Below are positions 37,623-63,540 of a stretch of DNA of 64,000 nt, piece after piece. Source of the DNA: an uncultured Desulfobulbaceae bacterium (lineage in GTDB: Bacteria > Desulfobacterota > Desulfobulbia > Desulfobulbales > BM004); the NCBI GenBank assembly GCA_947259115.1, contig CAMYKS010000004.1, positions 2,810 through 66,809 on the forward strand. The letters are read 5' to 3'. The first letter of the stretch is position 1. Each line of letters begins with the position of its first letter. Both the position numbers and the translations under genes were made by a program. The notes below the pieces were generated by a model that was not told where the DNA came from, searched no databases, and saw only the letters and a program-made list of their open reading frames with translations.

Positions 37623-40130
37623 TCACTCTTCCGGTGTAAAAAACCGTAACCGCAGGGCATTGGTTACAACAGACACCGAACTCATGGCCATGGCACCACC
37701 GGCAATCATGGGGTTTAAGGTGGGGCCGCCGAAAATATAGAGCAGGCCTGCGGCAACAGGGATTCCCACGACATTGTAAGCAAAGGCCCAGAAAAGATTC
37801 TGTTTGATATTGCGCATGGTTGCCCTGCTGAGTGAAATAGCGGTGAGCACACCACTGAGTTCCCCCTTCATGAGCACGATATCGCCCGACTCCACAGCCA
37901 CATCAATGCCGGTGCCCATGGCAATTCCCACATCGGCTTTTGCCAGGGCCGGGGCGTCGTTGATGCCGTCGCCAACCATGCCGACCTTCATGCCCTTACC
38001 CTGTAACTCTGCCACCTTTTCCGCTTTAAAATGCGGCAGGACTTCAGCCATGACATCTTCGATGCCTGCCTGGACCGCAATTGCTGCAGCTGTTATTTTA
38101 TTGTCACCGGTGAGCATGAAAATCTTGATTCCCATGTTTTTCAGCCTGTTGATTGTCTGCGGGGTTTCAGGCTTTATCTTGTCGGCTATGGCCAGCAAAG
38201 CTGCCATCTCGCCATTGATCGCCAAAAAAAGGGAAGTCTTGCCGGAGGCGGCAAATTCCTCAGCCCTGCGGTCAACAGATGGATAGTCAAAATGTCCAAC
38301 CTGCTCCCAGATAAACTCCCTGTTGCCAAGAAGAAGGATTTTATCTTCCATGGAAGCTTTAATTCCTTTGCCTGGAATGGCCTCAAAGGTATCCGGTTCC
38401 TTTAACTGCAGGTTCCTTGTCCGGGCTTCCTGGACTATCGCCTCTGCCAGGGGATGCTCGGATACACTTTCCGCTCCTGCAACAAGAGCCAAGATCTTAT
38501 CTTCCGACTCACCTGCATCCTGCACCAGCTCAAAATCGGTTAGCTGCGGTTTGCCATAGGTAAGGGTGCCCGTCTTGTCAAAGACTAAAGCGTTTATCCC
38601 CTGGGCCATTTCCAAGGCCTCCCCGCTTTTAATGAGAACCCCGAGCTGGGCGCCTCTGCCGGTGCCGACCATGATCGATGTGGGTGTTGCCAGTCCCATG
38701 GCGCATGGGCAGGCAATTACAAGCACAGCGATGAATATGCGCAGGGCAAAGGGAAACGGTGCCCCGCCGATAAAGTACCAGGCCAGTCCGGACAGCGTTG
38801 CTATGACCATCACCGTCGGCACAAAATACAAACTTATCCTGTCGGCCAGGTTTGCGATGGGTGCCTTGGAACCCTGGGCTTCACGCACCATTTTAATGAT
38901 ACGTGCCAAAACGGTATCCTGGCCGACACGTTCAGCCAGTACCCGCAGCATGCCGTTCTTATTCAGGGTACCGCCGATAACCCTGTCCCCTTCTTCCTTT
39001 GAAACGGGCAGGCTTTCTCCGGTCAGCATGGATTCATCAACGCTGGAATGCCCCTTCTTAACCGTACCGTCCACTGAAACTCTTTCACCGGGTCGCACCA
39101 GGATCAGGTCTCCGGCTTCGATATCGGATACAAGAATGGAAACCTGTGCCTCATTTTCCGCACCCGGGTTTTTTATAAGTGTTGCCTTGTCAGGTGTTAA
39201 TTCCATGAGTTGACTGATGGCATCAGAGGTCTTGGCCTTGGAGCGCGTCTCCAGGTATTTGCCCAAAGAAACCAGGGCGATAAGCATCGCGGCAGACTCG
39301 TAGTACAGGTCCATTACCCGGGTCATTGCGTCAAGGCCCAGAGAAATTTCAATGAGATTCCAGGTTGAATAGATAAAAGCTGCCCCTGTGCCCACTGCTA
39401 TGAGTGAATCCATATTGGGTGATTTTCTGATAAGGGCGGGAAAGCCATTGAGATAAAAGCGGCGGCCGGACCACATAACCGGCAAAACCAGAAGAAACTG
39501 GGTCAAGGCAAACTTAAAGGGAGCATTATGGGGATCGAGGAATTTCGGCAGCGGCATGCCGAGCATTTCGCCCATGGAAAGCACCAGCAAAGCAAAGGCA
39601 AAAGCAAAAGCCGGGATAAGCTCTTTTTTCATCCTGGTCAGTTTTGCCTTGGTTTCCCTCTGCTGTTTTAGCAGCAGGTTTTCATCCTGTTCCGCCAACG
39701 GTTCAGCTTCAAATCCAAGACCGGAAATGGTTTCCAGTATTCTGCGCTTGCTGATTATGTCAGGGTCAAATACAACAACACCTGTCTCTGCTGCCAGATT
39801 AACCTGCATCTTCCGCACACCATTATGGTTTGATATCACCTTCTCGATGCGTGCCGAACACGAAGCACAGGTCATACCCTTAATTTCCAGGTCAAGGGTT
39901 ACCTCGCTGGCAGGTATCTCAAGTTCAAAACCAAGGCCGGCAACCTGGCTTGAAATATCATCAAGTGAAAGTTTCGCATCATCCCATTCCACCTCCATGG
40001 TTTCTGCAGCCAGATTCACTGAAACAGCACTGATACCGGCCTGGGATGACAGTACTTTTTCAATGCGGGCAGAACAGGAAGCACAGGTCATACCCTTAAC
40101 AGCAAGCGTTTTTTTCTGTAATTCAGCCAT
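37623..40130 (-). CDS. copA: copper-translocating P1B-type ATPase with two N-terminal HMA domains
   Basis: 2 x [18 protein letters not shown] (LTGESLPV), CPC ([11 protein letters not shown]), [15 protein letters not shown]. Confidence 0.95.
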
Positions 40131-40266
40131 GTTTGTTTCTCATAGAATTAGATGGATTAAGGTGCGCATGTTGATCAACTATAAGCACAAACCCAGATTG
40201 AAACAATCCGATAGACAATTACCGCACAAGAAAGTTTGTCATGTAATTTCTATATTTTTATGAGCA

Positions 40267-40676
40267 CGATGCGGACATCTATACCGTGCTAACCATATAT
40301 TTCAGTAGGTAGCACTATTTTCGATAAAATTTTTCAAATGCTCCAAATATTTATCAGCATCATAAAAAACGATGCGGACACGTATACCTTTTGAAACATT
40401 TATTGCATCAGGTGGCGCTGGTATTCCGAAGTTTTTTTGAATGCATCAAATATTTGTCGGCATCAAAAAAAATGATGCGGACACGTATACCTCTTGAAAC
40501 TATTTATTGTGTCAGGTGGCGCTGGTATTCCGAAGTTTTTTTGAATGCATCAAATATTTGTCGGCATCATAAAAAAACGATGTGGACACGTATACCTCTT
40601 GAAACTATTTATTGTGTCAGGTGGCGCTGATATTTCGAAGTTTTTTTGAATGCATCAAATATTTGGCAAAAGCATG
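40267..40676. repeat. tandem array, 4 units of ~103-105 bp
   Basis: Units start at 40267, 40370, 40473 and 40578. Units 2-4 are nearly identical and unit 1 is diverged. Each unit contains GTATACC..N~32..GGTATTC, TTGAATGCATCAA, and a junction inverted repeat GCATCA-A7-YGATGC. Confidence 0.9.
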
Positions 40677-41255: not shown

Positions 41256-43421
41256 TTACTGGAGAGCAATAATCTCAGTAGCTGTTCCCATGACCACCGG
41301 CTCACCCATGTTGGCTGCTGTCCAGATATCAAATGTGACATTGCCCCATGTCATATGATTTTCAAAAGGCCCGTCAGGAAGATTTCGGGCCCGGCCTCCG
41401 AATTTCTCCGTGTTTTCCGTATCATGCTCATTGAGAAACTCCATGTACTCCCTGTTAAAGGTCTGGTATTTCAGGGTGGCGGTCACGGTAACGGCTCCCT
41501 GTGCCGATGCGGGAATCGTAAAGGCATAGGGTGTCACATCCCAGTTCTGCCCGGTGGGATAGTCCGTATCCTTTGGATCATGGGGAACAATAAAGGCCCC
41601 GTCTTTCATGTACGCCTCTTTATTGTAGCCAAGAGGAGGGATCCTGTTGTCCTTCTCGATATAGTTCATCAGGACGAAATGAAATTCCTCCTCTGCATGG
41701 GTCACAGTCCCGTCTTTGTCCGCATCAATAATGCTGTAACCATCGAGTTTAAAATTCTTGTAGCCCTCTGCCAGGACCAGCTGTTCATAGACTTTGATCA
41801 TGGTCTTCCCCGGGTCCATGACAAAGCCGCCGTTTGCTGCCGCAAAATATTCTTTGCGGGCAAGGGAGCCGTCAGGCAGCAAATATCCGCTTTCAAAGAG
41901 CAGCGTACCCGATTGATCAACTGCCTGTACATGAAGCCACATCTGCCGCCCTTCGGCAAAACCGGAAGGAAGCTTGTGCCCTGTTTTATTCGTCACCTTG
42001 ACATTTACCGTGACCACCTGGCCGGGCGCAGCCTGGGCAGGAGTATTAACCAGTGCTATATCTGCTGCGGTGTCCCGCATAAATGCCCTGTTTCTATTCA
42101 TGGCATCCATATATGACTGGGTTCTCCAGGGATTAACAGAATAATTGTAAGGGGGTTTTGTCCACTTATCATCAATCGGGCCCCAGAGCATGTCGAGCCC
42201 CGGGTAAAGAAGCCAGGTTTGGGCGCCCTGGAATTTCATGGGCACATGACAGTCCTGGCATTTTGTATTGCCGCGGTAACCGCTCCAGTACCATTCGGTA
42301 TAGGTTCTCTCTATGGGGTGGAGCATGCGGTCCACGCCGGAGGTCCTGGTATAGATGAGCGGATTGGTGACATCGTGGCAGGCACCGCAGAATTGACTGG
42401 CGTCTGCAAAACCACCGGAAGATCCGGTGCCCGTGGAATTCTCCCCGTGGCAGTGAGCACAGTCCCTGTGGGCAATAATTTCAAGATAGCCGAAAGAAAA
42501 ATCACGGGTATGACAGGAAAAACACTCATAGATCCCTCCCGATTCGCCTGAGATGGCTTCCGTGCCTTCTGGAATATCTGCTCCGTCTCGAAGATGGTGA
42601 CGCACCCTGGTTGTGTCATTCATATCAGAGAAAAAACTTCCGTTTCCTGCAGCCATCACTCTTCCGTCATAACGGGACTGTCGCGTGTATCCCTCATTGA
42701 ATTTTGCCCGATGGCAGAAATCACACTGCATGCCCTCCATTTCCGCTTCAGACTCTTCAAGGGTATTCACGGCTCGGGGGTTGCCGAACTCATCAACGGG
42801 ATTTTCCTTAAAGGCTGCTCCCCAGAACTGTCCTTTCAGAAAGGGGGCATGGGGCGTCGCAGGCTCAGAGTTCCCCTCCATCCATCCCACCGGAGTATGA
42901 CAGCGCAGGCACATATCCGCTGTCAGGGGAATCTTGTCTTCTTCAAGGAGCTGGATATCACCTCCGGGTATGCAGGGTTCCCCGATGTTGGGGTCATACA
43001 GCTCCAGAGCACAGGCAACTTCTCTTGCCGTCCCAATGCCGACAAGATCGAAAAGGTCCTGATTGAATGTATCGATTCCTTTGGCGACAGCAGCATAGAT
43101 CAGGTTGATAAAATCATTGTTTGCCACATATGTCGTGGCGAAAAAAGCAGGATCACGGGCGGCATTTCCCATGGTCATCCCGGCCCAGTCACGATAATGG
43201 TTCCCGTCTCCCAGGCGTTGGGGCGCCCTGAAGCCTTCCTTCACCGCACACAGGTCCTGGCCCTGGTCATTTAAGACTTCCAAGCCGTAACCGCAGCTGT
43301 TCTCCATAAATCCTCGGGGCTGGGTGGAATCAAAGTCGGTTAATACATTTGCCATCAAAGACCCTGGAGTTGAAAAAACAAGCAATACTAAAGCAATGGT
43401 CTCTATACATTTTACCTTCAT
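41256..43421 (-). CDS. secreted hexahaem c-type cytochrome with non-haem C-terminal domain carrying an EF-hand-like loop
   Basis: Signal peptide. Six CxxCH motifs (CLRCH, CDFCH, CFSCH, CAHCH, CGACH, CQDCH). C-terminal ~260 aa lacks haem motifs and contains VTNKTGHKLPSG and DADKDGTVTHAE. AAGGAGGG is placed for the ATG at 43421. Confidence 0.85.
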   Translation of the reverse strand: MKVKCIETIALVLLVFSTPGSLMANVLTDFDSTQPRGFMENSCGYGLEVLNDQGQDLCAVKEGFRAPQRLGDGNHYRDWAGMTMGNAARDPAFFATTYVANNDFINLIYAAVAKGIDTFNQDLFDLVGIGTAREVACALELYDPNIGEPCIPGGDIQLLEEDKIPLTADMCLRCHTPVGWMEGNSEPATPHAPFLKGQFWGAAFKENPVDEFGNPRAVNTLEESEAEMEGMQCDFCHRAKFNEGYTRQSRYDGRVMAAGNGSFFSDMNDTTRVRHHLRDGADIPEGTEAISGESGGIYECFSCHTRDFSFGYLEIIAHRDCAHCHGENSTGTGSSGGFADASQFCGACHDVTNPLIYTRTSGVDRMLHPIERTYTEWYWSGYRGNTKCQDCHVPMKFQGAQTWLLYPGLDMLWGPIDDKWTKPPYNYSVNPWRTQSYMDAMNRNRAFMRDTAADIALVNTPAQAAPGQVVTVNVKVTNKTGHKLPSGFAEGRQMWLHVQAVDQSGTLLFESGYLLPDGSLARKEYFAAANGGFVMDPGKTMIKVYEQLVLAEGYKNFKLDGYSIIDADKDGTVTHAEEEFHFVLMNYIEKDNRIPPLGYNKEAYMKDGAFIVPHDPKDTDYPTGQNWDVTPYAFTIPASAQGAVTVTATLKYQTFNREYMEFLNEHDTENTEKFGGRARNLPDGPFENHMTWGNVTFDIWTAANMGEPVVMGTATEIIALQ

Positions 43422-43565
43422 GTTCACCATCCCTCCTTTTGTAAATAAAAAACTGCGAAGTAATCACTTTTTCAGCCTGCCCTAATAGTCGGGGCCCTAT
43501 CTCATTTTTATTAGTCCTGCTTTTTTCTGCCCAACCTTTACAGGTACTTCGGCTTTTACTTTTGT

Positions 43566-43619
43566 GGAAAAACACAAGGCCTCCATAGGGAAACGAATAC
43601 ATTCCCCTGGAGGCCTTGT
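43566..43619 (-). terminator. terminator/attenuator-like hairpin in the 5' region of the hexahaem cytochrome gene
   Basis: Perfect 12-bp stem ACAAGGCCTCCA/TGGAGGCCTTGT (43574-43619), followed on the minus strand by G-TTTTT. It lies ~150 nt upstream of the start codon. Confidence 0.5.
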
Positions 43620-43862
43620 AATGGCGTTTTTAAATACACCTCTCTCATTGAAGTTTCCTTCTATTGGAGATTTTATGAATATGCCAGGACTTTGATTTAT
43701 AAAAAAACATATAAACCTGATTGTCAATAAAAATTAGAAAGAACAACTTGGTAGGAATGGTTGCTAATTTAGATGTCTGTGTAAGTCAAACTGGGGATTT
43801 TTTATGATGGAAGGATGGCTGATGGTATTATTCGATAAAATTGATTTTTATATGCCTCTTTA

Positions 43863-43897
43863 ACAAAAGCCCCCCACTGGTAATTCCAGCGGGGGGC
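43863..43897 (-). terminator. rho-independent terminator ending the cytochrome operon
   Basis: Stem GCCCCCCACTGG/CCAGCGGGGGGC (one mismatch), followed on the minus strand by TTTTGTT. It lies 28 bp after the 43925 stop. Confidence 0.75.
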
Positions 43898-43924
43898 TTG
43901 ATTTATTAACTGAAAGGTTGTCTG

Positions 43925-45376
43925 TTACTCTGGTTCATCGTGGCACAGGTCGCAGTCCATTTTGATGTAGTTGCCGGCCTCGGAGGTATGTTCCTCATCA
44001 TGGCAGCGGAAGCAGCCAAAGCCGTTTTCATCATAATACTTATGGCCGAGATGCCCTGAATAAGTACCCCATAGGACATTCATGTTGGGCCAGACATTAT
44101 TCATATAGGACTCAACCAGGTACTCTCCTGCAGCCCTGATATCCTCTCCATTTTCCTCGGCCTGCTTTTCGCTGCGCAGTTTCTGTAGCCCCAGCAGGTG
44201 TTCAGTCATTTTGGCCTCGGCCTCTTCCCTGGACGGGTACTCCCGCTGCAGGGCAATGAGGCTGTCCTCCCTGATGCCTTCAATTTCCGGGTTGATCCTC
44301 TTGCTGAGCAGACCGAAGTCCACTACTTCATCGGGCATATCATAGATGTGGGTAGGACGATTATGGCAGTCGATACAATCCATGGTGCGCCATTCACCTT
44401 CCTCGCCCTCCGGCATCTCAATATCCTCTTTGACAAATTCCTCTTCAGAGCCGTCTGGACGCTTCACCCTGACCCTGGCTACCTGGGTCCGCTTTTTATC
44501 AGCAGCAAGATAACTGACCTCAACATCCTTACTTACATGCCAGTGGATGCCCTCAAAATCTCCGGTCTGGGGATTATGACCGCCGATATGCAGGGCCATT
44601 TCATTGACCTCGGGATTGACCTGGTCATCGTTGGAAAAATGGCTGAATGTCTTAATCTTCTTACCGTGGAACTTATCAGGCCAGTGACACTGTTCACAGG
44701 TGTCCCGGGCAGGACGCAGATGCTCCACCGGTGCCGGGATCGGACGGCTGTAGCTGTCAGCCACAACAGCCAATACCTGGCGTAGGCCTGATATCTTGGC
44801 CTGCACGAACCAGTCGGCGCCAGGGCCGATATGGCATTCCACACAGGCAACCTTTACATGGGGAGAGCGCTGGTAGGCCGTATATTCCGGCGCCATGACA
44901 TCGTGGCACACCATGCCGCAGAAATAAGGTGAATCGGTAAAGTGATAGCCTTCATAACCGACGAGAACAAGAACTGCTAAGTTGACGATGGTCAGGATAA
45001 TGAAGCCGATTATGAATTTACGATGCTTGTGATCACTGAGGTTGATCTGCAGGTGTTCTTTGACAATGCCGTACTTATGGTATTGCTTCCTTCTTAACCA
45101 GGCAGCAAGGGGGATAATCAAAAGACCCAGTATCATGCCGACCGGCAGAATCATAAAGGTTATTATACCGATATAAGGGTTGTGGAAGACTCCCAATACC
45201 TCTGCAATTATGCCGAGTATCATCAAGGTGATACTGACAGTTGTCAGGACTACTCCGAACATTCCAAGGGGTGTACGCCACATCCCCCGGATAATGTGAC
45301 CCCATGGCCCTCTGTAGCTTTTGGTGCCGCCACCTGTTGTAGTTTGCTCTTCCTGGTTTGTTTCGTTCTCAGACAT
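43925..45376 (-). CDS. inner-membrane NapC/NirT-type multihaem cytochrome (ImcH-like architecture)
   Basis: Three N-terminal TM helices, then haem motifs CGMVCH (CX3CH), CVECH, CEQCH, CIDCH, CFRCH, CDLCH. Confidence 0.8.
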   Translation of the reverse strand: MSENETNQEEQTTTGGGTKSYRGPWGHIIRGMWRTPLGMFGVVLTTVSITLMILGIIAEVLGVFHNPYIGIITFMILPVGMILGLLIIPLAAWLRRKQYHKYGIVKEHLQINLSDHKHRKFIIGFIILTIVNLAVLVLVGYEGYHFTDSPYFCGMVCHDVMAPEYTAYQRSPHVKVACVECHIGPGADWFVQAKISGLRQVLAVVADSYSRPIPAPVEHLRPARDTCEQCHWPDKFHGKKIKTFSHFSNDDQVNPEVNEMALHIGGHNPQTGDFEGIHWHVSKDVEVSYLAADKKRTQVARVRVKRPDGSEEEFVKEDIEMPEGEEGEWRTMDCIDCHNRPTHIYDMPDEVVDFGLLSKRINPEIEGIREDSLIALQREYPSREEAEAKMTEHLLGLQKLRSEKQAEENGEDIRAAGEYLVESYMNNVWPNMNVLWGTYSGHLGHKYYDENGFGCFRCHDEEHTSEAGNYIKMDCDLCHDEPE

Positions 45377-45591
45377 TTCTCTTAGCTCTCCTTCGCTATC
45401 TTCTTCATTGGTGCGGATATATAAATATTCCTAAATATAATCAGGCCAGGCTTTTGTAGTCCGGACTTATCTCATTAATTTCTGGTGATCTTTAAACCAC
45501 GATGTGGCAAACAAGGTCAACTCATGAAAGAACCCGTTTATATAACAAAGGGGGTCCCAAAGCTCAACTATTTTTATGTACGAAAAACTAC

Positions 45592-46434
45592 CTATTTTAC
45601 ATACAGGAAGACCATTGAGTAGATAATGGATACAACGAGAGTGAGACCTATAGCCAAAGCGGTAAAACCAAAAACATGGGACACAACAAAAAACCAGCGT
45701 GGTGTCGGGGGCACTTTGATCTCGTCAAGCTTGCCTGCAGCAACGAGCTCGGCATATTCCCGGGGCCGTTCATGCCTCAGTTCTTCCAGGGGCATGGTGC
45801 CGGTGAAAATAACCGGGTCCATGGGAAATTTTTCAGGACGTAAATGGGTATTGAAAAAATGGATGGTGAAAATAAATCCCGATGCCAGCAGGGCCTCATC
45901 GCTGTGGATAATTGTGGCAATGTTAATCCAGTAACCGGGTATGAATATGGTGAATGTTTCAGGGAACCAGAGGCATAATCCCGTTGTACCGATGACTGCC
46001 ACACCCCAGAAGACCGCCATGAAATCAAACTTTTCCCAGTAGGTCCAACGCCCGTATTGCGGCTGCGGCCCCAAACCGAAAAACCACTTGAAGGTCTGGA
46101 TCAGTTCCTTGGCATCGTTCAGGTTAGGAATCATGCTGTCTTTATAAAGGATAAATTGCACAATTGATTTGCCGGACTTCCTCCAATTCTGGTACATGAG
46201 GACAAAGGTTAAGGCAAAGTAGGTAAATGTAACAATGGCCATTAACCTGTGCAGTGCTCCCAAGACCTCAAAGCTGCCAAAAAAATCTGCAACAAATTCA
46301 GCCCATCTCTCCGAGGCAAACTTAAGCGCCATGCCGGTAACAGCCAGGGTCAAAAAGCTGACAATCACCAGAAAGTGCAGAAATCTGGGAAAAATTGAAA
46401 AACGTTGTACATATTCTACTTGTGGGTTGTCCAT
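45592..46434 (-). CDS. membrane b-type cytochrome subunit (FdnI/HydC-like)
   Basis: RFSIFPRFLHFLVIVSFLTLAVTG opening typical of FdnI/HydC-type dihaem b subunits, 5 TM helices, conserved His (HRL, IHSDEALLA, HFFNTH). Confidence 0.7.
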   Translation of the reverse strand: MDNPQVEYVQRFSIFPRFLHFLVIVSFLTLAVTGMALKFASERWAEFVADFFGSFEVLGALHRLMAIVTFTYFALTFVLMYQNWRKSGKSIVQFILYKDSMIPNLNDAKELIQTFKWFFGLGPQPQYGRWTYWEKFDFMAVFWGVAVIGTTGLCLWFPETFTIFIPGYWINIATIIHSDEALLASGFIFTIHFFNTHLRPEKFPMDPVIFTGTMPLEELRHERPREYAELVAAGKLDEIKVPPTPRWFFVVSHVFGFTALAIGLTLVVSIIYSMVFLYVK

Positions 46435-46520
46435 AATGAATCTTCCTTCTCAAAAACTCTCGGCTCTGCCGACATTTCTGTTTATATTCAAATTACTTTA
46501 AGAGCTGTTTTATTTTATCC

Positions 46521-48527
46521 TTATTCGTCCTTCTTCAGAATACTCTGACGGCTATGTTCACGGCGTTTCTTAAAACGCTCCCTGAAGGAACGCGGCACCC
46601 AGAAGAGGGTGTGGATGCCGAAGAAGGCAAAGGTACCCACCAGCAGGCCGGTCATGCCCCAGAATGTATAGAACAGATAAGGGTACTTATCCCTGTCATG
46701 ATGGGTGGCATGGGTCAGGTAGCCGGTGAATTTCCTGTTGGAGCCCGGATGACATTTCTTGCAGGTTTCCACGACATGGCGCCTGTTCAGGCGGGACTCG
46801 CTGTAGTATGCCGGCAGGATATCGTGGGCCCCGTGACAGTCGGAACACTTTGCTGTCTTTTCACCTCCGGAAAGCATGGAGGCCTTGCCGTGATACGTTT
46901 CAAAATAGGTGTCTGTTTCATGCTCATGGCAGGTGCCGCACTCATCAAGGATCAGACCACGAAAACCTGCTGTATCATGACGGCTGATGGTATGCGAGGT
47001 ATGGCAGTCATTGCAGACCGGCAGTTTTTTATCCGTTTTTGATACCTGCGGACTGTGGATCGAGGAACTGAATTTTTCAGCAATACCCAAGTGGCACTGG
47101 GCGCATGCGGTAATGATATTCTCCCGGTTAACACTTGATTCAGGATTGGAGGCCGGCAGCATACTGTGAGCCGTATGGCAGTTGGTACAGGTGGCTGAGA
47201 CCATCAGTCCTGACTGCGACAATCCCCTACCGTGAATACTCATCTGGTAGTGCTTGACGATATCATGCTGTTTTCCTGTATAGCGCAGGGCGGCCTTCTC
47301 TCCTTCCCGGTGGCAGCGGCCACAGAGATCCGGAATGTTACGGGCAAATATGGGGGATTCGAAGTTGGATTTTGACATGACGCCATGGGTGCCATGGCAT
47401 TCCGTACAGACCGGGGCATTCTTGTCATTTTTTGCCACCAGCATGCCGTGGGTGCTCTTGTCGTAAAGATCTACCACCTGGGCATGGCATATGGAACAGT
47501 CCACCGGGCCTGAATCCTGGCAGACCGGATTCTTCTGGTGATCAACATTGACATGGCACTTGGCACAGGCAATACGTTTCTCCTGATGGATTGAATGCTC
47601 AAAATCATCGACATTGACATACAGAATTCTTTCCTCACCGTTGGCCAGTATCTTCTTCAGGTCAGGATTACCGTGACATTTCAGGCAGAACTGGTCGTTG
47701 AGGCTGTCTTCATAAAGAACTCTCCTGGCCTGGTGAGGTCCGTGGCATTCGACACAGGCCGGGACTTTATGCGGTTCCGTTTCCCATAATTCACCACGGA
47801 CGATCTTGGTATGAGCATCTTCAATATTTGCATGACATTTCATGCAGGTCTTCACAACATTCAAACGGCTGATTGTGGAATTCGGGTCCGTGTGCGGCAG
47901 AACATTATGGGCCGTATGGCAGCTGGAACATACCGCGGTTACGGTCAGCCCCTTGCGGAATAACCCCTCACCGTGTATGGACATGGAGAAATTTTTCAGG
48001 ATATTATGTTTGCCGATGTCATGGGTCAGGGTCATGGGGCTGCCTTCCTGGTGGCAGCGGCCGCAGGTAAAGGGAACATTCATTACATATGTAGGAGAAT
48101 CCTTATCCTGCATTGAAAGGATATCATGTTTGCCATGACAGTCTATACATTTAGGCGCATAGGGATCATTATTTTCAAGAGCCTGGCCATGCAGGCTGTC
48201 TGCAAAAATCTCGGCAATATCATCATGACAGTTGGCGCAATCCACACGGGCCATTGGGTATGGATGCGGTGCTTCTTCAACATCAGCCTCTTCATGGCAG
48301 GAGACACAGCCGTTGTCCGCATGGACCGAACCTGCAAACTTATCACCGTCAAGGGTCAACTGAACGGTCTTGCCGTCAACCTCAACGGTAAGGTCCGGGT
48401 CGGTATGACAGTCAAGGCAGTCCTCGTCTGTCATGGCTGCGGCATTCTGGGCAAGATTTACCAGCAATGCGACAGATATAATAACTAGAAACTTCAACCA
48501 TCCCTGTTTTTCTGTAACGTTTAACAT
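46521..48527 (-). CDS. membrane-anchored multihaem c-type cytochrome, 19 CxxCH motifs
   Basis: Signal/anchor at the N-terminus, 19 CxxCH motifs counted, clear internal duplication, and a single C-terminal TM helix (YLFYTFWGMTGLLVGTFAFFGIHTLFW) followed by a basic tail. Confidence 0.9.
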   Translation of the reverse strand: MLNVTEKQGWLKFLVIISVALLVNLAQNAAAMTDEDCLDCHTDPDLTVEVDGKTVQLTLDGDKFAGSVHADNGCVSCHEEADVEEAPHPYPMARVDCANCHDDIAEIFADSLHGQALENNDPYAPKCIDCHGKHDILSMQDKDSPTYVMNVPFTCGRCHQEGSPMTLTHDIGKHNILKNFSMSIHGEGLFRKGLTVTAVCSSCHTAHNVLPHTDPNSTISRLNVVKTCMKCHANIEDAHTKIVRGELWETEPHKVPACVECHGPHQARRVLYEDSLNDQFCLKCHGNPDLKKILANGEERILYVNVDDFEHSIHQEKRIACAKCHVNVDHQKNPVCQDSGPVDCSICHAQVVDLYDKSTHGMLVAKNDKNAPVCTECHGTHGVMSKSNFESPIFARNIPDLCGRCHREGEKAALRYTGKQHDIVKHYQMSIHGRGLSQSGLMVSATCTNCHTAHSMLPASNPESSVNRENIITACAQCHLGIAEKFSSSIHSPQVSKTDKKLPVCNDCHTSHTISRHDTAGFRGLILDECGTCHEHETDTYFETYHGKASMLSGGEKTAKCSDCHGAHDILPAYYSESRLNRRHVVETCKKCHPGSNRKFTGYLTHATHHDRDKYPYLFYTFWGMTGLLVGTFAFFGIHTLFWVPRSFRERFKKRREHSRQSILKKDE

Positions 48528-48547
48528 GATCCTTCTAATCCTGTTTT

Positions 48548-49297
48548 TTATGATGATGGACTATTCATAAAGTGCTTGAACAATTCAATTGGCACCGGAA
48601 TCAATGTACTGTTCTGCTCCGATACGCCTATCTCTCTGATGGTTTGCAGGTAGCGGAGCTGCAGGGTAATCGGTTCCTTAGCTATCAGGCTTGCAGCCTC
48701 GCTCAGTTTGGCAGCAGCCTGCAGTTCGCCGTCTGCATTAATGACCGTGGCCCGACGCTCCCTTTCCGCCTCTGCCTGCTTGGCCATAGCCCTCTGCATA
48801 CTCTCAGGCAGATCAATTTCCTTTAACTCCACCTTGCTTATGGCAACGCCCCAGGGCTCTGTTTCATGATCCAGAATTTCCTGCATTTTCCTATTCTTGG
48901 CATCACGTTCGGACAGTATGTGATCCAGATCCTCCTGGCCGCAAACACTCCGAAGAGTGGTCTGGGCCAACTGTGATGTTGCCGCCTTGTAGTTTTCAAT
49001 TTCAATTGAAGCTTTTACCGCATCGACGACCCTGAAATAAACCACTGCGCTGACACGCACAGAGACATTGTCCTTGGTAATGATATCCTGCCCAGGGACA
49101 TCATGGGTAATGGTCCTCATGTCAACCCTTTTGAGTTTATCAATAAGGGGCATGACGAGCACCATACCCGGACCTTTCGGTTCGAGTACCTTGCCCATCC
49201 GAAAGACAACACCACGTTCATATTGGGGGACCATTTTAACAGATGCAAAAATCAGCATCGCAATAAGCGGAATCAGGAAAACGGCAACGTATATCAT
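48548..49297 (-). CDS. SPFH/band-7 (stomatin/slipin-like) protein
   Basis: N-terminal TM, VPQYERGVVFRMGK, DMRTITHDVPGQDIITKDNVSV, then an Ala/Glu-rich coiled coil. Located 20 bp upstream of the 19-haem gene. Confidence 0.9.
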   Translation of the reverse strand: MIYVAVFLIPLIAMLIFASVKMVPQYERGVVFRMGKVLEPKGPGMVLVMPLIDKLKRVDMRTITHDVPGQDIITKDNVSVRVSAVVYFRVVDAVKASIEIENYKAATSQLAQTTLRSVCGQEDLDHILSERDAKNRKMQEILDHETEPWGVAISKVELKEIDLPESMQRAMAKQAEAERERRATVINADGELQAAAKLSEAASLIAKEPITLQLRYLQTIREIGVSEQNSTLIPVPIELFKHFMNSPSS

Positions 49298-49905: not shown

Positions 49906-52173
49906 GTGGACCTGACTCTCATCTTTCATATCTTTTCCACCATTGGTTTTGGTCTGGCTTTGCTCCTGGCATTCCGCATCCAGAAAAATCTTTTGGGACA
50001 TCCCTCAAGAATATTCCTGACCCTTTTTCTGCTGATTTATTTCCTGGTCGGGGTGTCTAATGTCCTTAAAGAGGGCGGTGTGACAAATTACTTTGACCGT
50101 TTTGAGTACTTTGCCGAAATGCTCTTTCCGCCGGCCTTTCTTTTTTTTATTTTTCCAATCTTTTCCCTGTACATTTTTTCCATATACATGAAGCAGGATT
50201 TTGAAAAACGTTTGGAAATTGAGGAGTCTCTCATAGAAAGTGAAAAAAAATTCCGTAATATCTCTGAAGAAATAGCCGATGGAATTGCAGTAGTCATCGA
50301 CGGAAAAATTAAATGGCTGAACAAGGCATTTCCGAAAATTTTCGGCTATGAATATGATGAACTGCTTGATATGGATATACAGTCCCTCATTCAATTGGTT
50401 ACCCCCGCTCGGAACGAAAACCCTTTACCGCAGACCCCCCCCGCAAACAATCTGCATCAAGACCGTTACGAGACAACCGGATTTTTAAAGAACGGTAATA
50501 GAATTGCAATCGAGGCTTCTGAGAAGTCAATTACCTTTGAAGATAAGTCCGCTCTCCAGATCATTACCCGTGATATTACGGAAAGGCAACTGGCCCAGGA
50601 GGAAATTACGAGGGCAAAAATGGAATGGGAGCAGACTTTCAATACTGTTCCGGACATGATCACCATACTTGACAGCAGGAACAGAATCCTGCGTGTCAAT
50701 AAGAGTATGGCAGAGCATCTCAACGCAACACAGGATGAACTTGCTGGTAAAAATTTTCACTTGCTCGTTCATGGCAACGAAAAGCCTGGTGAAATGACAT
50801 CCCCTGATTCCATAGCAGCATACTGCGAGGGGCAATCTGTTGAAATCTACGAAGAACATCCCGATAAAAATTTCCTAGTCAGCATCTCACCGCTCAATGA
50901 TGACAGGGGAAACTATATCGGTTCTGTCAGAGTTGCCCATAATATTACTGAATTAAAGCAGGTGCAGAATGAGCTAGAATCTACCCGGGCTTTTCTCCAG
51001 TCTGTTATTGACGGTGTTGCTGAATCCATTATGGTAATCGACAGGAATTACCGCATTCGCCTCATTAACAAAACGGCAATTGAACTGCACGCGGTTGACC
51101 TGCCCCTGACAGATTCCCATCTTTGCTACAAGATCTCGCATCATACAAACCAGCCATGCCACGGGGAAGAACATCCCTGTCCCCTGAAAAAAGTTCTTGA
51201 ATCGAAACAACCGGTGAACCTTGTGCACACCCATAAACGGGCAGACGGCACTGAATATGTAGTTGAGCTTGGCGCCTCCCCAATCTTTGACAATGAAGGT
51301 GAGATTACCGGTATTATTGAAGTGGGGCGTGATATTACAGAAAAATTACGCCTTGAAAAAGAGGAAAAGGAATTTCGAGCCAGGCTCTTCCAACAGCAGA
51401 AAGACCAGTCCATAGCCCTCATTGCCAAAGGTATTGCCCATGATTTTAATAATCTCCTGGGTACTGTTATCGGCAATGTAGACCTGTTGCAAATGGGAAC
51501 CGCCCCAAAAGAGGAAGAGTGCGGCATCGTTGAAGCCATAGGAAGTGCTGCCCACCGCATGAGCGACCTTACCACCCAGCTTCTGGCTTATGCCAAGGGA
51601 GGGGCGTACAAACTTGAACGTATTGTGCTCACCTCCCTTATCCTGCAAACCCTGAAATTCTCACATACCGGTCTTGCAGCAAAAATAAATATTATCAATA
51701 ACCTGGATAAAGACCTCTGGCCAATTCTCGGTGACCCAAACCAGATGAAACAAATGCTGGTGAATATTTTCACAAACGCCTTTGAGGCCATGGAAGATGG
51801 CGGCGGCACACTGTGTGTGGAAACCAGAAATGTAATCAAGGAAACCGATTGGGAATGTTCCTTCAAAAATGTTCACCCGCAAGGCTGTTATATTTCCATA
51901 GATATTACCAATACGGGTCCTGGAATCCCTGAAGAAATAGCAAAACAGATCTTTGAGCCGTTTTACACCACTAAGTCATTGGGGCGGGGACTTGGCCTTG
52001 CTGCTGTGGCGGGCATTGTACAAAACCATGGTGGTTGCGTGTCATTTGAGAGCAGTTCCGGGAGTATAACATTTCATATTCTGCTCCCGGTGGCAAAAGA
52101 TAATGGCAATACCCCGGGAAAAGAAATTTTAAATCAATCTGCATTGACGGCAAGCCTGAAACAAATACAGTAA
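49906..52173 (+). CDS. sensor histidine kinase with multi-TM N-terminus and three PAS-like domains
   Basis: GTG start. PAS segments, one with a Cys/His-rich insert (CYKISHHTNQPCHGEEHPCP). H-box IAHDFNNLLGTV, HATPase GRGLGLAAV. Confidence 0.85.
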   Translation: MDLTLIFHIFSTIGFGLALLLAFRIQKNLLGHPSRIFLTLFLLIYFLVGVSNVLKEGGVTNYFDRFEYFAEMLFPPAFLFFIFPIFSLYIFSIYMKQDFEKRLEIEESLIESEKKFRNISEEIADGIAVVIDGKIKWLNKAFPKIFGYEYDELLDMDIQSLIQLVTPARNENPLPQTPPANNLHQDRYETTGFLKNGNRIAIEASEKSITFEDKSALQIITRDITERQLAQEEITRAKMEWEQTFNTVPDMITILDSRNRILRVNKSMAEHLNATQDELAGKNFHLLVHGNEKPGEMTSPDSIAAYCEGQSVEIYEEHPDKNFLVSISPLNDDRGNYIGSVRVAHNITELKQVQNELESTRAFLQSVIDGVAESIMVIDRNYRIRLINKTAIELHAVDLPLTDSHLCYKISHHTNQPCHGEEHPCPLKKVLESKQPVNLVHTHKRADGTEYVVELGASPIFDNEGEITGIIEVGRDITEKLRLEKEEKEFRARLFQQQKDQSIALIAKGIAHDFNNLLGTVIGNVDLLQMGTAPKEEECGIVEAIGSAAHRMSDLTTQLLAYAKGGAYKLERIVLTSLILQTLKFSHTGLAAKINIINNLDKDLWPILGDPNQMKQMLVNIFTNAFEAMEDGGGTLCVETRNVIKETDWECSFKNVHPQGCYISIDITNTGPGIPEEIAKQIFEPFYTTKSLGRGLGLAAVAGIVQNHGGCVSFESSSGSITFHILLPVAKDNGNTPGKEILNQSALTASLKQIQ

Positions 52174-53668: not shown

Positions 53669-55018
53669 TTATGATTTGAAAAGAGCTGGAATAATCTGAT
53701 GGCGATTCAGCAGTTTATAAAAATCTGTGCGGTTACGATTGGCTATACGAGCAGCCTGTGACACATTACCCTGGGTTGTCTGCAGGAGCTTTATGAGATA
53801 TTGCTGTTCAAACTGACGTCGGGCTTCTGACAGGGGGACTATCTTCTTCTGATGCTGCTTTATTGCATCATGCAAGAGGTCCTCAGTAATGAGCGGCGAG
53901 GTGGCAAGAGCACATGCATTCTCTACCACATTGTACAATTGACGGACATTCCCGGGCCAGGCTGCATCCACCAGAATCCGCATTGCATCAGGCGCAATCC
54001 TCTTAACTTGTTTCCTGTTCTCACCGGACAGGATTTCAACAAAATATTCCACCAGAAGCGGTATATCCTCCTTGCGCTCATGCAAGGGAGGAAGGTTAAG
54101 ACTCACGACATTGAGCCTATAAAAAAGGTCCTCCCTGAACTGCTTGTGCTCAAGAGCTTCTTCCAGGTTTCTGTGTGTTGCGGAGATAATACGGACATCC
54201 ACAGGAACCGGCGTTGTACTACCCACAGGCCTTACCTGCTTTTCCTCCAGGACTCTGAGCAGCTTTACCTGGAGATGCAGTGGCATATCACCGATCTCAT
54301 CGAGAAAAAGTGTTCCTTTGTTCGCGGCCTGGAAAAGTCCAAAATGGCTTTTCAAAGCACCCGTAAAAGACCCCTTGGAATGACCAAACAGTTCCGACTC
54401 AAGCAGTGCTTCCGGGATAGCTGCACAGTTGACCGGGACAAATGGCTTGTCCCTGCGGCTGCTTGCCCTATGAATAGCAACGGCCAAAAGTTCCTTGCCG
54501 GTACCGCTTTCTCCTCGTATAAGCACAGTCGAGTCTGTATCAGCCACCAAATAAGTCCTGGAAAGAAGTTCCTCCATGGCAGCACTTTTGGAAATAATAT
54601 CCCTGCGCCACTTATTACTATCATTCTGCGGTAGAGTGCCACCGGTTGAAAAGTGCAACGCTTTCTCAGTTTCGAGAATAAGATCCTTGCCGTCAATTGG
54701 TTTAGTAAGAAAACTAAAAACTCCCTTTTTCGTCGCCTCAACAGCCTCTGGAATAGAGCCATGGGCGGTAATTATAATCACAGGAATAACCTTGTTCCTT
54801 TCCCGAATCGCCTCAAAAAGAGCCATGCCGTCTATCCCCTGCATGCGCAGATCAGTAAGCACAACATTGGGATTGATCAGTGAGAATTTCACCAGGGCTT
54901 CCTCTCCGCTGAGCGCCGTGGTAACCTCATAACCATTGCTCTCAAGTCGTAATTTCCACAGGCTGAGCAAATCCGCCTCATCATCAACAAGGAGTATTCT
55001 GTTGCTTTTTCTATTCAA
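53669..55018 (-). CDS. sigma54-dependent response regulator (NtrC family; GlrR/QseF-like)
   Basis: Receiver (ILLVDDEADLL..VLTDLRMQGIDG), AAA+ domain (GESGTGKE, ESELFGHSKGSFTGA), C-terminal Fis-type HTH. Its start overlaps the stop of the lipoprotein gene. Confidence 0.9.
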   Translation of the reverse strand: MNRKSNRILLVDDEADLLSLWKLRLESNGYEVTTALSGEEALVKFSLINPNVVLTDLRMQGIDGMALFEAIRERNKVIPVIIITAHGSIPEAVEATKKGVFSFLTKPIDGKDLILETEKALHFSTGGTLPQNDSNKWRRDIISKSAAMEELLSRTYLVADTDSTVLIRGESGTGKELLAVAIHRASSRRDKPFVPVNCAAIPEALLESELFGHSKGSFTGALKSHFGLFQAANKGTLFLDEIGDMPLHLQVKLLRVLEEKQVRPVGSTTPVPVDVRIISATHRNLEEALEHKQFREDLFYRLNVVSLNLPPLHERKEDIPLLVEYFVEILSGENRKQVKRIAPDAMRILVDAAWPGNVRQLYNVVENACALATSPLITEDLLHDAIKQHQKKIVPLSEARRQFEQQYLIKLLQTTQGNVSQAARIANRNRTDFYKLLNRHQIIPALFKS

Positions 55019-55647
55019 GGCTGCTCCGTCTCCCTGCTTTTAATAATATTTTCAATGTTCTTTAACTGTCCGATCTGTTTCTTCAGCTCCACGATCTGTT
55101 CTTGCAACTCCTCGTTCAAAATCTGATCCTTCTTAATCTTTCCCTGTAAGGTTTCAACTTCTGAGGTGAGTTTCTTTTTGTCTTCAAGCAGCGTTTTCCA
55201 GGCACTCCATTTGTTCAACATTTCTACATCAAGCCAATCAACAAGAATTTTGAATCCCTGAATATCATCTGTGGAGTTAGGGTGTTCAGCTATGTATTGT
55301 TCAAGCACCTCCCGACCCTGCTTAAACTGCTGATAGTCAGCCTGTGCATCTAAACTCAAGCATATAAAGTGTAATTTGTACAGGTCTTGACCATACTGGA
55401 GTCCATCTTCAGCCATTTTGAAATTAGCAGCAAACTCCTCAGGACCAATGCCTTGTATTTCGTTCAAGCACGACAAAACATAAGTAGTCACATTCAGTTC
55501 CGGAAGGTTCCCCGATTCTGGATCGAGCTGCGCCAGTTCCGGGCTGGGCTGCACCAGTTCCAGGCTGGACTGCCCCAATTCAGCACATCCTCCCAGCAGC
55601 AACACACAGACAAGCATCAAAATGTTTATTTTCACGACGTTATTCAT
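55015..55647 (-). CDS. lipoprotein encoded between kinase and regulator (QseG/YfhG-like position)
   Basis: MNNVVKINILMLVCVLLLGGC lipobox and a C-terminal coiled coil. 4-nt overlaps with both neighbours. Confidence 0.7.
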   Translation of the reverse strand: MNNVVKINILMLVCVLLLGGCAELGQSSLELVQPSPELAQLDPESGNLPELNVTTYVLSCLNEIQGIGPEEFAANFKMAEDGLQYGQDLYKLHFICLSLDAQADYQQFKQGREVLEQYIAEHPNSTDDIQGFKILVDWLDVEMLNKWSAWKTLLEDKKKLTSEVETLQGKIKKDQILNEELQEQIVELKKQIGQLKNIENIIKSRETEQP

Positions 55648-58236: not shown

Positions 58237-58456
58237 TATGAATGGGGATGAGAGACATGAAAAAGTGACTACATAAAATGAGCCGCTTACCTCACCCTTC
58301 CTAAACTTTAAATATACATTTGAGTTAAATTTGATGAACCGACGAAAAAACAATGCTACCTCTGTTATTTTTTCAAAAAATGCCAGGACCGGAAATAGAA
58401 ACTAAATGCAGCAACTGAGTAACAAATTTTATTTCATTTAATAAAGGATGATTCGT

Positions 58457-59394: not shown

Positions 59395-60045
59395 CTAGAC
59401 TATGGCATCCTCGGTTGCTTCTGGCTCATGATGATCTTCATATCCCGTGAACATGGCCTTGAAATGCGCTAAAGGTGTGTGTCCTAGGGTAGCAAGATAG
59501 GCATGCACAAATATAAAGGCAGTAAAAAAGAAAAAGAGCAGGACATGAATAGTTGAGACGATTTTTATGCCGCCAAGAAGGTCTATATAATTTTCGAACC
59601 TCTTAACCCGCCAGAGAAAAAGCCCGGTTATCATCTGAGCCGGAAGAAAGACAAACATGAGGCCGACATAGGCTTTTTGCTGCAGGGCATTAAACTTGTT
59701 GTCAGGGGTCATATGATGCGGGTTGGGGTCTCCCTTGAAAATTCCTGAACCGTAATATTTTACTTGTTTAATGGCATCCGGCACAAAGGTCCTTGGATTT
59801 GGGAAGTAAAGCTTGATTTTCATGGTTCCAAAATAAAAAGACACCCATAGACCGTAGGCTGCAATCACTACAAAACCGACATAATTATGCAGTTGAATCG
59901 CCTCTTCAAGTGAAAACCAGTTCACCATTTCAGCAAACCGTATCTGGATGCCGGTTATGATCAGTATGATAAACCCAACTGCATTGACCCAGTGCCATAC
60001 TCTGACTGGAGCAGGATGAACATACATCAAATTATCATCTCCCAT
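59395..60045 (-). CDS. membrane b-type cytochrome subunit (FdnI/PhsC-like; CbcB-like)
   Basis: HPAPVRVWHWVNAVGFIILIITGIQIRF opening, 4-5 TM helices, conserved His (HNY, HVLLFFFF..FVHAY). Confidence 0.75.
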   Translation of the reverse strand: MGDDNLMYVHPAPVRVWHWVNAVGFIILIITGIQIRFAEMVNWFSLEEAIQLHNYVGFVVIAAYGLWVSFYFGTMKIKLYFPNPRTFVPDAIKQVKYYGSGIFKGDPNPHHMTPDNKFNALQQKAYVGLMFVFLPAQMITGLFLWRVKRFENYIDLLGGIKIVSTIHVLLFFFFTAFIFVHAYLATLGHTPLAHFKAMFTGYEDHHEPEATEDAIV

Positions 60046-60056
60046 GACCTTTCTCC

Positions 60057-61172
60057 TTATATTGAAAATTCATCTTTCTTTTGTTTTCTTTTTCTACGGA
60101 CAGGTGCGGTTGCTATCCTGACCAGGAGGTGTCCTGTCACCACACTTAACCCGCCGACAATGAGAACAAGTCCTATCTTATCAAGATTTCGCACCCGGGT
60201 GCCGCCAATTGCATAGAAGTGATTCACATAGTAGCTTTCAAGCACCCTGCGCTCCACCCTGTGGCGATCACCGGTGCCGTCTTCTCTGTTAAGACTGATA
60301 TAGACCTCCTCAAAAAATGGCGATTCCGGATTATGGCATTGTTCACACTCCCGGTTTGCCCCTCCCCTGTTGACATGGTGCACGGAAGGCACCAGCTCCA
60401 GTACCAGCTCACCGTGGAAGGTGCCGCGGATATCTTTCTGGCGCAACAGCAGGACCATGTCTTCCAATTCCTGCAAACTGATGATTCCGTCCTGGTCTTT
60501 ATCCACCTTATCCATGAAGCCGTCATAGTCCGTCTCCAAGGCTGCGAGCAGATTTTCCGCCCCTAAGAACTTATTGGAAATCAGGTCGTAAAATCTGAGC
60601 GAAATGTAACGCGGGGAATCAGGGGCATGGCAAACGGCACACTCCACAAAGGCAAAATGTGTCTGCTTCTGTGGCAGCCAATCATGGAAGCTATCAGGGT
60701 TGTGGCACCTGAGGCAGAATTTATTCTCCCGCTCAAAGACGGAATCCGAGGTCAGATGAGAGACAAAATGGTACCCATGGCAGGCATAGCAGGGGATGGT
60801 TATACCTTTGCCGCCGGCTTTCTTGTGAACACTGTCAAGATATGCCTCACCCTCTTCTTCATGGCACTCCTCGCATTTTACCATCGCCAGAGAGGTCTCA
60901 TGGGGCACATCGTTATCCCAATTGAGTTCCTCAATATCGGAATGGCAGTCCACACAGGTGATGCCGTTCACATTATGTACAGAGTATTTAAACTTATTGT
61001 AATCAATAAAGAGGTCCTCTTTCATCCCTTCGGACTCAGTGCGCTCAAGGGAGTCGTCGCTGTGGCACTCCATGCATTCATCATTCTCAGTGGCAAAGGC
61101 ATAGGTCGAAAGAAGGCAGGAGCTTATAAGAATGATAAAAACACCAACCAGATAGTACGTCTTTAGTTTCAT
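60057..61172 (-). CDS. heptahaem c-type cytochrome with C-terminal membrane anchor and internal EF-hand loop (CbcA-like architecture)
   Basis: Signal peptide. Seven CxxCH motifs (CMECH, CVDCH, CEECH, CYACH, CLRCH, CAVCH, CEQCH). DKDQDGIISLQE lies between haems 6 and 7. C-terminal TM IGLVLIVGGLSVVTGHLLV plus a basic tail. Confidence 0.85.
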   Translation of the reverse strand: MKLKTYYLVGVFIILISSCLLSTYAFATENDECMECHSDDSLERTESEGMKEDLFIDYNKFKYSVHNVNGITCVDCHSDIEELNWDNDVPHETSLAMVKCEECHEEEGEAYLDSVHKKAGGKGITIPCYACHGYHFVSHLTSDSVFERENKFCLRCHNPDSFHDWLPQKQTHFAFVECAVCHAPDSPRYISLRFYDLISNKFLGAENLLAALETDYDGFMDKVDKDQDGIISLQELEDMVLLLRQKDIRGTFHGELVLELVPSVHHVNRGGANRECEQCHNPESPFFEEVYISLNREDGTGDRHRVERRVLESYYVNHFYAIGGTRVRNLDKIGLVLIVGGLSVVTGHLLVRIATAPVRRKRKQKKDEFSI

Positions 61173-63518: not shown

Positions 63519-63540
63519 AAATTTAAAGCCGCAGTGCTGC

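Follow-up and report, generated by a model that had tools for sequence, protein, structure and literature searches.

The window analysed here, a stretch of 64,000 nucleotides from an uncultured Desulfobulbaceae bacterium (GenBank assembly GCA_947259115.1, contig CAMYKS010000004.1, positions 2,810 to 66,809 of the forward strand), carries on its minus strand a group of multihaem cytochrome genes. This region probably forms part of a Desulfobulbales cytochrome island that passes electrons from quinol to the periplasm; it would combine a CbcL-type bc cytochrome divided between two genes with an ImcH-family cytochrome, and the slipin gene at its head would be a lineage-specific addition. A preliminary description, made from the sequence alone, had listed an SPFH protein, a 19-haem cytochrome c, a cytochrome b, a NapC/NirT-type cytochrome with three transmembrane helices, a terminator and a hexahaem protein. 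The five minus-strand open reading frames (ORFs) were found in the ORF list of the window where they had been placed, and this gene content agreed with motif counts and Pfam matches. Besides the matches detailed below, Pfam and NCBIfam returned multihaem domains of a generic kind. The elements of the cluster are:

48548..49297, minus strand: slipin gene (stomatin-like, SPFH/Band_7), 249 aa, first gene of the cluster
46521..48527, minus strand: predicted cytochrome c subunit of a split CbcL-type quinol:cytochrome oxidoreductase, 668 aa, 19 CxxCH motifs
45592..46434, minus strand: predicted cytochrome b subunit of the split CbcL-type complex, 280 aa, without CxxCH
45491..45558, minus strand: intergenic elements between the b gene and imcH, a hairpin and a promoter-like element of putative function
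43925..45376, minus strand: predicted ImcH-family inner-membrane cytochrome, 483 aa, five CxxCH motifs and one CX3CH
43863..43900, minus strand: intrinsic terminator-like hairpin 3' of imcH, recognised by its folding and U-run

The slipin gene is separated from the c gene by 20 bp, the c gene from the b gene by 86 bp, and the b gene from imcH by 215 bp; 494 bp lie between imcH and the gene of the hexahaem protein.

The 280-aa b subunit matched the Pfam family Ni_hydr_CYTB with 30.4 bits, just over the cut-off of 30.1. A sequence search of the PDB with this protein returned nothing. Its AlphaFold2 model (predicted local distance difference test score, pLDDT, 75) contains five long helices, and the sole significant fold match in the PDB was FdnI of E. 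coli (1kqf_C; E value 1.5e-4, target-normalised template modelling score 0.75), in keeping with the label "FdnI-like" that the protein had been given. Its fold is thus of the FdnI type with a fifth, C-terminal helix. Among the NCBIfam models only that of the formate dehydrogenase gamma subunit (TIGR01583) responded, scoring 37.8 against a cut-off of 115.85, and there was no match to PhsC. An identity as formate dehydrogenase subunit was rejected, because the score lies far under the cut-off and no catalytic genes are found nearby.

The 668-aa c subunit possesses a signal peptide and a C-terminal transmembrane anchor. Its 19 CxxCH motifs, located behind the signal peptide, agree with the N-terminal periplasmic domain of 3-23 haems that characterises the CbcL/MtrH/MtoC family as catalogued by Zhong & Shi in 2018 (PMC6295460). 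They are arranged in two tandem octahaem modules and a trihaem part adjoining the anchor; the modules form an internal repeat (residues 36-269 and 280-516, 36% identity) with eight equally spaced motifs in each copy. The preliminary description regarded this haem wire as much larger than in the described systems. That view has to be given up, since Table S2 of PMC6295460 already lists Caldithrix abyssi Cabys_319, a fused protein of 920 aa with six helices and 19 motifs. The motif positions of Cabys_319 are offset from those of our c subunit by a steady 14 to 19 residues, indicating the same haem spacing. A literature search on 19-haem cytochromes gave no relevant paper, and no experimental study of any member of this 19-haem subfamily was found in the searchable literature. 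In a PDB sequence search the only match to the 19-haem protein was an unnamed 278-aa cytochrome c (28pb).

The connection between the two subunits is seen in the membrane part. In an alignment of 76 fused or split homologs, reaching from the last haem motif to the C-terminus, His639 in the anchor helix of the c subunit was invariant (76/76), as were His20, His62, His177 and His192 of the b subunit, while His197 was present in 75 of 76. Together the c and b subunits have six membrane helices, one in c and five in b, and the invariant histidines lie in helices 1, 2 and 3 with two more in helix 5, spread over two polypeptides. The published description of CbcL has the same number of helices, with single histidines in helices 1-3 and a pair in helix 5. 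The gene break consists of a stop codon and the 86-bp spacer and falls in the basic cytoplasmic loop after helix 1. Because the anchor of the c subunit would supply an invariant histidine to the b-haem bundle, the two proteins would have to form one complex. Fragments of CbcL from Geobacter sulfurreducens, machine-read from an alignment in the supplement of PMC9129911, were identical to the b subunit at 24 of 44 positions (including YWEKFDF) and at 15 of 32, i.e. 47-55%. No similarity was detectable between the b subunit and the PhsC-like cytochrome b encoded elsewhere in the window (59395-60045; E value 3.5). The pair had originally been compared with CbcBA and CbcL without distinction. As a quinone-linked bc module of the Geobacter type it stands, and it is of the CbcL type; the pattern of helices and histidines and the missing similarity to the PhsC-like protein argue against a CbcBA type.

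Scanning the genome collection with an alignment of the b subunit yielded 80 loci with 52-65% identity, from Acidobacteriota, Ignavibacteriota, Bacteroidota, Planctomycetota, Zixibacteria, Calditrichota, Gemmatimonadota, Verrucomicrobiota and other phyla. In 58 of them the 19-haem cytochrome and the b domain were fused into one protein of about 920-1050 aa, 19 were split and three were cut by a contig end. All splits (19 of the 77 untruncated loci) occur in the same loop and in several separate clades, at least four according to a rough neighbour-joining tree, which implies that fission or fusion has recurred. Exactly 19 CxxCH motifs were counted in 61 of 73 complete units, fused or split and from many phyla, and identity within this 19-haem CbcL subfamily amounts to about 42-60%. 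Versions with 11 haems (8+3) were present in other Desulfobacterota (L004 and L013).

An ImcH-like gene, always with the CX3CH motif, was located within about 2.2 kb of the CbcL-type gene in 25 of the 80 loci, mostly on the same strand and less than 300 bp away, on either side of it. The preliminary description saw two alternative quinol-oxidising modules fused into one operon; the combination of a CbcL-type and an ImcH-like module is not peculiar to this locus and is found in many phyla. There is also precedent for such proximity in Desulfuromonas soudanensis, where DSOUD_0207 and DSOUD_0214 are the imcH and cbcL homologs, and in D. acetexigens, where the consecutive accessions TRO80643.1 and TRO80642.1 imply it. 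Four loci from Ignavibacteriota and Bacteroidota (L025, L051, L076 and L081) showed a larger arrangement: a 13-haem cytochrome of ~730 aa, a split 19-haem CbcL and an ImcH-like gene, then, at a distance of some 1.5 kb downstream, a cytochrome of ~490-540 aa with 11 haems. Such a cluster suggests a fuller set of electron-transfer genes in those phyla.

The 483-aa protein matched the Pfam family Cytochrom_NNT (36.3 bits). Hydropathy peaks at residues 39-57, 69-87 and 121-139 indicate three N-terminal transmembrane helices, and the basic residues flanking them are consistent with a periplasmic haem domain. Directly after the third helix follows the CX3CH motif (CGMVCH, residues 153-158), whose motif residues were invariant in 29 homologs; five CxxCH motifs are found at residues 178, 227, 334, 455 and 475. 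The ImcH family has been defined by three N-terminal helices, an atypical CX3CH by the membrane and five to nine CX2CH motifs (PMC6295460). The six motif positions of our protein track those of the Geothrix fermentans homolog (134/158/207/316/433/453; Table S3 of PMC6295460) with a near-constant offset. In ImcH of G. sulfurreducens, H137 and Q179 are the ligands of haem 1, the glutamine being the distal one, and K173 and Y188 are conserved nearby, close to the proposed quinol site (ImcH preprint). The corresponding residues of the 483-aa protein, K194, Q200 and Y209, lie at +36, +42 and +51 from His158 of haem 1, and these offsets are identical to those in G. sulfurreducens. Among the 29 homologs, which come from several phyla, the lysine and the glutamine were invariant and the third position was Tyr or Phe. 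The ImcH layout ascribed to the protein was therefore found in every sequence feature of the family that could be examined, and on these features we assign it to the ImcH family. A PDB sequence search gave only a weak match to NrfH.

The first gene encodes a slipin, with a Pfam Band_7 match of 136 bits and a single transmembrane helix at residues 2-20. Its relatives are named "slipin family protein", and it shares 60-64% identity with slipins of unrelated phyla; a PHROGs scan was uninformative. The order slipin, c, b, imcH is kept in three related loci, L001, L083 and L085, whose b subunits are 92%, 81% and 74% identical to that of the window, and the gap between slipin and c genes varies from 10 to 79 bp. 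L084 and the phylum-wide loci lack a slipin gene in this position, and the split pairs of Desulfomarina profundi (63%) and L003 (65%) have neither a slipin gene nor imcH adjoining. Slipin thus heads the cluster only in one subclade of Desulfobulbales. Judging from contigs of identical length in the three match lists, many further contigs appear to carry homologs of slipin, b subunit and ImcH together. In the locus L086 (GCA_018814865.1, 64123-78869) a slipin gene encoding a 69% identical protein lies between two ImcH paralogs, accompanied by FtsH and MerR genes, and an operon for NrfD, an iron-sulfur (FeS) protein and cytochrome c7, an arrangement which hints at a recurring association of slipin with quinone-linked cytochrome complexes in this order. 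The family usually occurs in other surroundings, e.g. beside NfeD in L088 and beside a Usp gene in a Chlorobiaceae genome. No ORF of the size of NfeD was present in the 608 bp upstream of our slipin gene, and no NfeD gene was called in L001, L083 and L085. The Cbc and Imc systems described so far had been said to include no SPFH gene, and this was borne out within the literature searched.

Transcription of the cluster seems to be more complex than the single unit originally proposed. The hairpin at 43863-43900, 3' of imcH, is very stable (-32.2 kcal/mol, z = -6.9) and is followed by UUUUGUU; it supports the terminator that had been placed here, and it was not listed by a simple terminator scan. 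The 215-bp gap between the b gene and imcH can be aligned among four Desulfobulbales loci (window, L001, L083, L085). At the start of the gap L001 has a G+C-rich hairpin (-20.4 kcal/mol) and L085 a clear terminator; the window has a degenerate hairpin at 45530-45558 (-11.4 kcal/mol, z -0.4), no better than shuffled sequences. Next to it lies a promoter-like element consisting of TTGACC (45515-45520), an 18-nt spacer and TTTAAA (45491-45496), which enclose the inverted repeat CCAC-N3-GTGG. Comparable elements (-35 TTGACC or TTGCCT, -10 TATACA, TATATG or TTTAAA, enclosing CCAC-N3/4-GTGG) are shared by the window, L001 and L083, and L085 aligns only partly over this region. As a hairpin and a promoter-like element precede imcH, the gene may have a regulated promoter of its own, whether or not transcripts also read through from upstream, and transcription of both modules as a single operon is doubtful. 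The 494-bp gap before the hexahaem gene showed no promoter-like site. A scan for the sigma-54 -24/-12 consensus gave 31 matches against 43.7 expected, none of them upstream of slipin or at other relevant 5' ends, and Rfam and tRNA scans of the window found nothing.

From the published genetics and biochemistry of Geobacter we infer how such a system might function. The 668-aa and 280-aa proteins would be the two halves of a bc cytochrome of the CbcL/MtrH/MtoC type, with the anchor histidine joining the b-haem bundle. The site of menaquinol oxidation would be the FdnI-type dihaem b domain, and the electrons would cross the membrane via the two b-haems and then pass along the 19 c-haems to periplasmic acceptors; as argued for CbcL, protons would be released on the cytoplasmic side and the energy yield would be low. 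ImcH might oxidise menaquinol at the periplasmic face, at an NrfH-like site by the His/Gln-ligated haem 1. By analogy with Geobacter sulfurreducens, the CbcL-type complex, ImcH and a CbcBA-like pair 10 kb away could serve acceptors of different redox potential. Slipin, as a lineage-specific addition, would most likely help to assemble the split complex or act as its scaffold in the membrane.

Several observations weigh against this interpretation. The direction of electron flow is not fixed by the sequence, and MtoC, which belongs to the CbcL family, also occurs in Fe(II) oxidisers. The window yielded no conduit through the outer membrane, neither MtrAB nor a porin-cytochrome. Slipins are a highly conserved family whose genes pair elsewhere with NfeD or unrelated genes, so that the slipin gene might stand here by position alone. 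The intergenic signals make it doubtful that imcH is co-transcribed with the genes upstream. The comparison with CbcL and ImcH of G. sulfurreducens is one with machine-read fragments and published motif tables, and the AlphaFold2 model of the 483-aa protein was too poor (pLDDT 52) and was not used.

The first point leads to a reversed system, in which the complex would act as a quinone reductase like MtoC and pass periplasmic or extracellular electrons, derived from Fe(II), a cathode, a partner cell or periplasmic sulfur oxidation, to menaquinone. Some members of the CbcL/MtrH/MtoC family come from Fe(II) oxidisers, and oxidases cannot be told from reductases by any feature of their sequences. 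The FdnI fold serves for quinone reduction in formate dehydrogenase-N, and sulfide oxidisers and cable bacteria belong to the Desulfobulbales. However, ImcH has so far been implicated only in quinol oxidation, with homologs found only in Fe(III) reducers; outward flow is therefore favoured by the 25 of 80 loci in which the CbcL-type gene is linked to imcH. There are also no mtoAB-like genes nearby, and we regard the inward direction as unlikely. Another view accepts outward transport and gives slipin a dedicated role: the 19-haem chain would be a wire of fixed length, anchored in the inner membrane and reaching an outer-membrane partner without soluble carriers, and slipin would assemble the split complex, perhaps together with ImcH, in an SPFH microdomain. 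This is a decidedly speculative extension, and we think it unlikely.

The original proposal, that one operon fuses a CbcBA-like anchored c and dihaem b with an ImcH-like module into a new combined system with an SPFH scaffold, has several points in its favour. Separate anchored c and b subunits do resemble CbcA and CbcB, and the CbcA anchor has likewise been proposed as a histidine donor. In addition, the gaps are short, a strong terminator follows only after imcH, and the gene order is kept in three relatives. Nevertheless this proposal now appears very unlikely. The b subunit is not detectably similar to the PhsC-like b of the window, matches the CbcL fragments and possesses five helices where CbcB has four; moreover, a separate pair of a 7-haem CbcA-like and a PhsC-like, CbcB-like protein is encoded at 59395-61172. 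The single operon is called into question by the hairpin in the relatives and by the promoter-like element in three of four loci, and the novelty of the combination by the wide occurrence of the CbcL-type and ImcH-like pairing. Finally, the c and b proteins might be the electron-transfer and membrane subunits of a periplasmic dehydrogenase, as suggested by the public annotation of the b subunit ("formate dehydrogenase subunit gamma"), the FdnI fold and the weak TIGR01583 match. Apart from the low score of that match, the Pfam-marked genes of the window, L001 and L083-L085 include no catalytic genes of the molybdopterin, FeS or hydrogenase kind next to the pair (for the 80 phylum-wide loci the screen used the proteins of the window alone), and most loci have the b domain and the 19-haem cytochrome as one fused protein. 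A dehydrogenase can hardly be maintained on this evidence. We thus favour the split CbcL-type complex accompanied by ImcH.

Two further features of the window bear on the surroundings of this cluster:

41256..43430, minus strand: secreted hexahaem cytochrome, 724 aa, six CxxCH motifs; a neighbour, not a conserved member of the cluster
59395..61172, minus strand: CbcBA-like pair, a 371-aa cytochrome c with seven CxxCH motifs and a 216-aa PhsC-like cytochrome b

The hexahaem protein showed a weak match to an MtrC/OmcA domain in Pfam and had 1610 homologs, matched mainly over its C-terminal half (residues 340-723); a PDB sequence search returned nothing. In L001, the closest relative, its position is occupied by an unrelated 715-aa cytochrome on the opposite strand and in L085 by a DUF2339 protein. 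Membership of a conserved unit was rejected on account of the unrelated cytochrome in L001, and the protein, originally counted as a component of the cluster, is better regarded as a variable neighbour. The segment 40825-41028 holds a Cys-rich ORF of 50 aa (MAVFKCEKCGATKEGRCKPKKCPEC...GCGCACAAKK) and, after it, a bidirectional terminator that is nearly perfect (arms of 28 nt, 96% complementary); given the adjoining copper ATPase the ORF may be metal-related. Between a small ORF and the copA-type P-type ATPase gene (37623-40130, minus strand) lie four tandem copies of a ~104-bp unit (40266-40665), 72-96% identical and each with a palindromic AT-rich segment.

Upstream of the slipin cluster, the c protein of the CbcBA-like pair (60057-61172) has a C-terminal anchor with His348. 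The best NCBIfam model for the b protein (59395-60045) was that of the thiosulfate reductase cytochrome b subunit, at 139 bits and below the cut-off of 204. By its architecture the pair matches the published description of CbcBA. Such a pair is also present upstream of slipin in L083 (directly) and in L085 and L001 (nearby). At 62334-63921 on the minus strand a 126-aa protein with a trihaem c7-type domain (TIGR04257, 77.5 bits) precedes an NrfD-like membrane protein of 394 aa, and these genes are probably part of an NrfD/FeS/cytochrome quinone module cut by the window end; comparable NrfD modules were seen in L001, L083, L085 and L086. In the window, L001, L083 and L085 alike, both a CbcBA-like pair and an NrfD module are situated upstream, so that in this clade candidates for the three Geobacter-type quinol oxidases share one island.

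Between the CbcBA-like pair and the slipin cluster lies a minus-strand unit (53669-57086) comprising a HAMP histidine kinase (55644-57086), an unassigned 210-aa protein whose N-terminus is hydrophobic (55015-55647) and a sigma-54-dependent response regulator (53669-55018), with overlapping stops and starts. A 755-aa multi-PAS histidine kinase with three N-terminal helices (49906-52173, plus strand) diverges from slipin across the AT-rich spacer of 608 bp; it has the same position in L001 (83% identity) and is a candidate regulator of the cluster. The gene at 58448-59203 on the plus strand encodes a PEP-CTERM/exosortase-associated acyltransferase (TIGR03694, 180 bits) with weak similarity to autoinducer synthases. 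In D. soudanensis a LuxI-like gene has been reported near the imcH and cbcL homologs (PMC4914508).

The proteins of the cluster are new members of families catalogued in 2018, the 19-haem form included, and our results leave the current picture of the ImcH and CbcL families unchanged. The preliminary description had named membership of a characterised complex with the same gene order as grounds for its refutation; the proteins do belong to catalogued families, but the exact order with slipin at the head is not described. A literature search on ImcH and CbcL in Desulfobulbales found no description of the present cluster. Three features have no description in the literature that could be searched: the split that recurs within the b-haem bundle, the adjacency of cbcL and imcH that is frequent across phyla, and the slipin gene heading the cluster in one Desulfobulbales clade. 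To our knowledge, genetics has defined no routes out of the quinone pool for extracellular electron transfer in Geobacter other than ImcH, CbcL and CbcBA, and these serve as markers of this process in uncultured organisms. One Desulfobulbales lineage has candidates for all three modules on one island. Because the 19-haem CbcL is conserved across phyla and often lies by imcH, the pair looks like an old, mobile two-module unit and not like a speciality of Geobacter. Searches built on the fused protein will miss the split forms of CbcL. The recurrent split inside the b-haem bundle, with one histidine supplied by the c subunit, constitutes a testable structural prediction. The link to slipin offers a modest lead on the function of bacterial SPFH proteins; if an SPFH microdomain did assemble the complex, slipin would be the first SPFH scaffold committed to a bacterial respiratory quinol oxidase.

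Among known systems, CbcL (GSU0274) comes closest to the c and b pair. Both join a periplasmic multihaem c to an FdnI/HydC-type dihaem b, have six membrane helices and the same histidine pattern, and, judged from the machine-read fragments, share motifs such as PN..D...WF..GP.P...RW.YWEKFDF. Unlike the Geobacter protein, the c and b domains are here encoded by two genes and do not form one polypeptide, the nine haems of CbcL are replaced by 19 (a duplicated octahaem module plus three), and a slipin gene precedes. With CbcBA (GSU0593-0594) the pair shares the arrangement of a separate anchored c and a separate b, the anchor helix of CbcA being a proposed donor of a b-haem histidine. However, CbcB is a four-helix PhsC-like b and CbcA has seven haems, whereas our pair has a five-helix b and 19 haems. 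The sigma-54 response regulator nearby recalls the regulation of Geobacter cbcBA by BccR, although no -24/-12 promoter was found.

The 483-aa protein shares with ImcH (GSU3259) the three N-terminal helices, the CX3CH motif, the homology to NapC/NirT and the identical spacing of Gln, Lys and Tyr. It has six haem motifs (1 + 5) as in the homologs of Geothrix fermentans and Geopsychrobacter, in contrast to seven in GSU3259, and its gene lies directly downstream of the CbcL-type genes, whereas imcH and cbcL are far apart in G. sulfurreducens. In this respect the cluster resembles D. soudanensis and D. acetexigens, which have imcH and cbcL homologs in one region of the genome. Their CbcL homologs have been described as single proteins, unlike ours (that of D. 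soudanensis is 71% identical to CbcL of G. sulfurreducens), and no slipin gene was reported at those loci. The slipin gene itself belongs to the same SPFH/Band_7 family as those of the slipin/stomatin-NfeD operons, of which L088 contains a canonical pair. Unlike them it has no NfeD partner and instead heads a cytochrome cluster.

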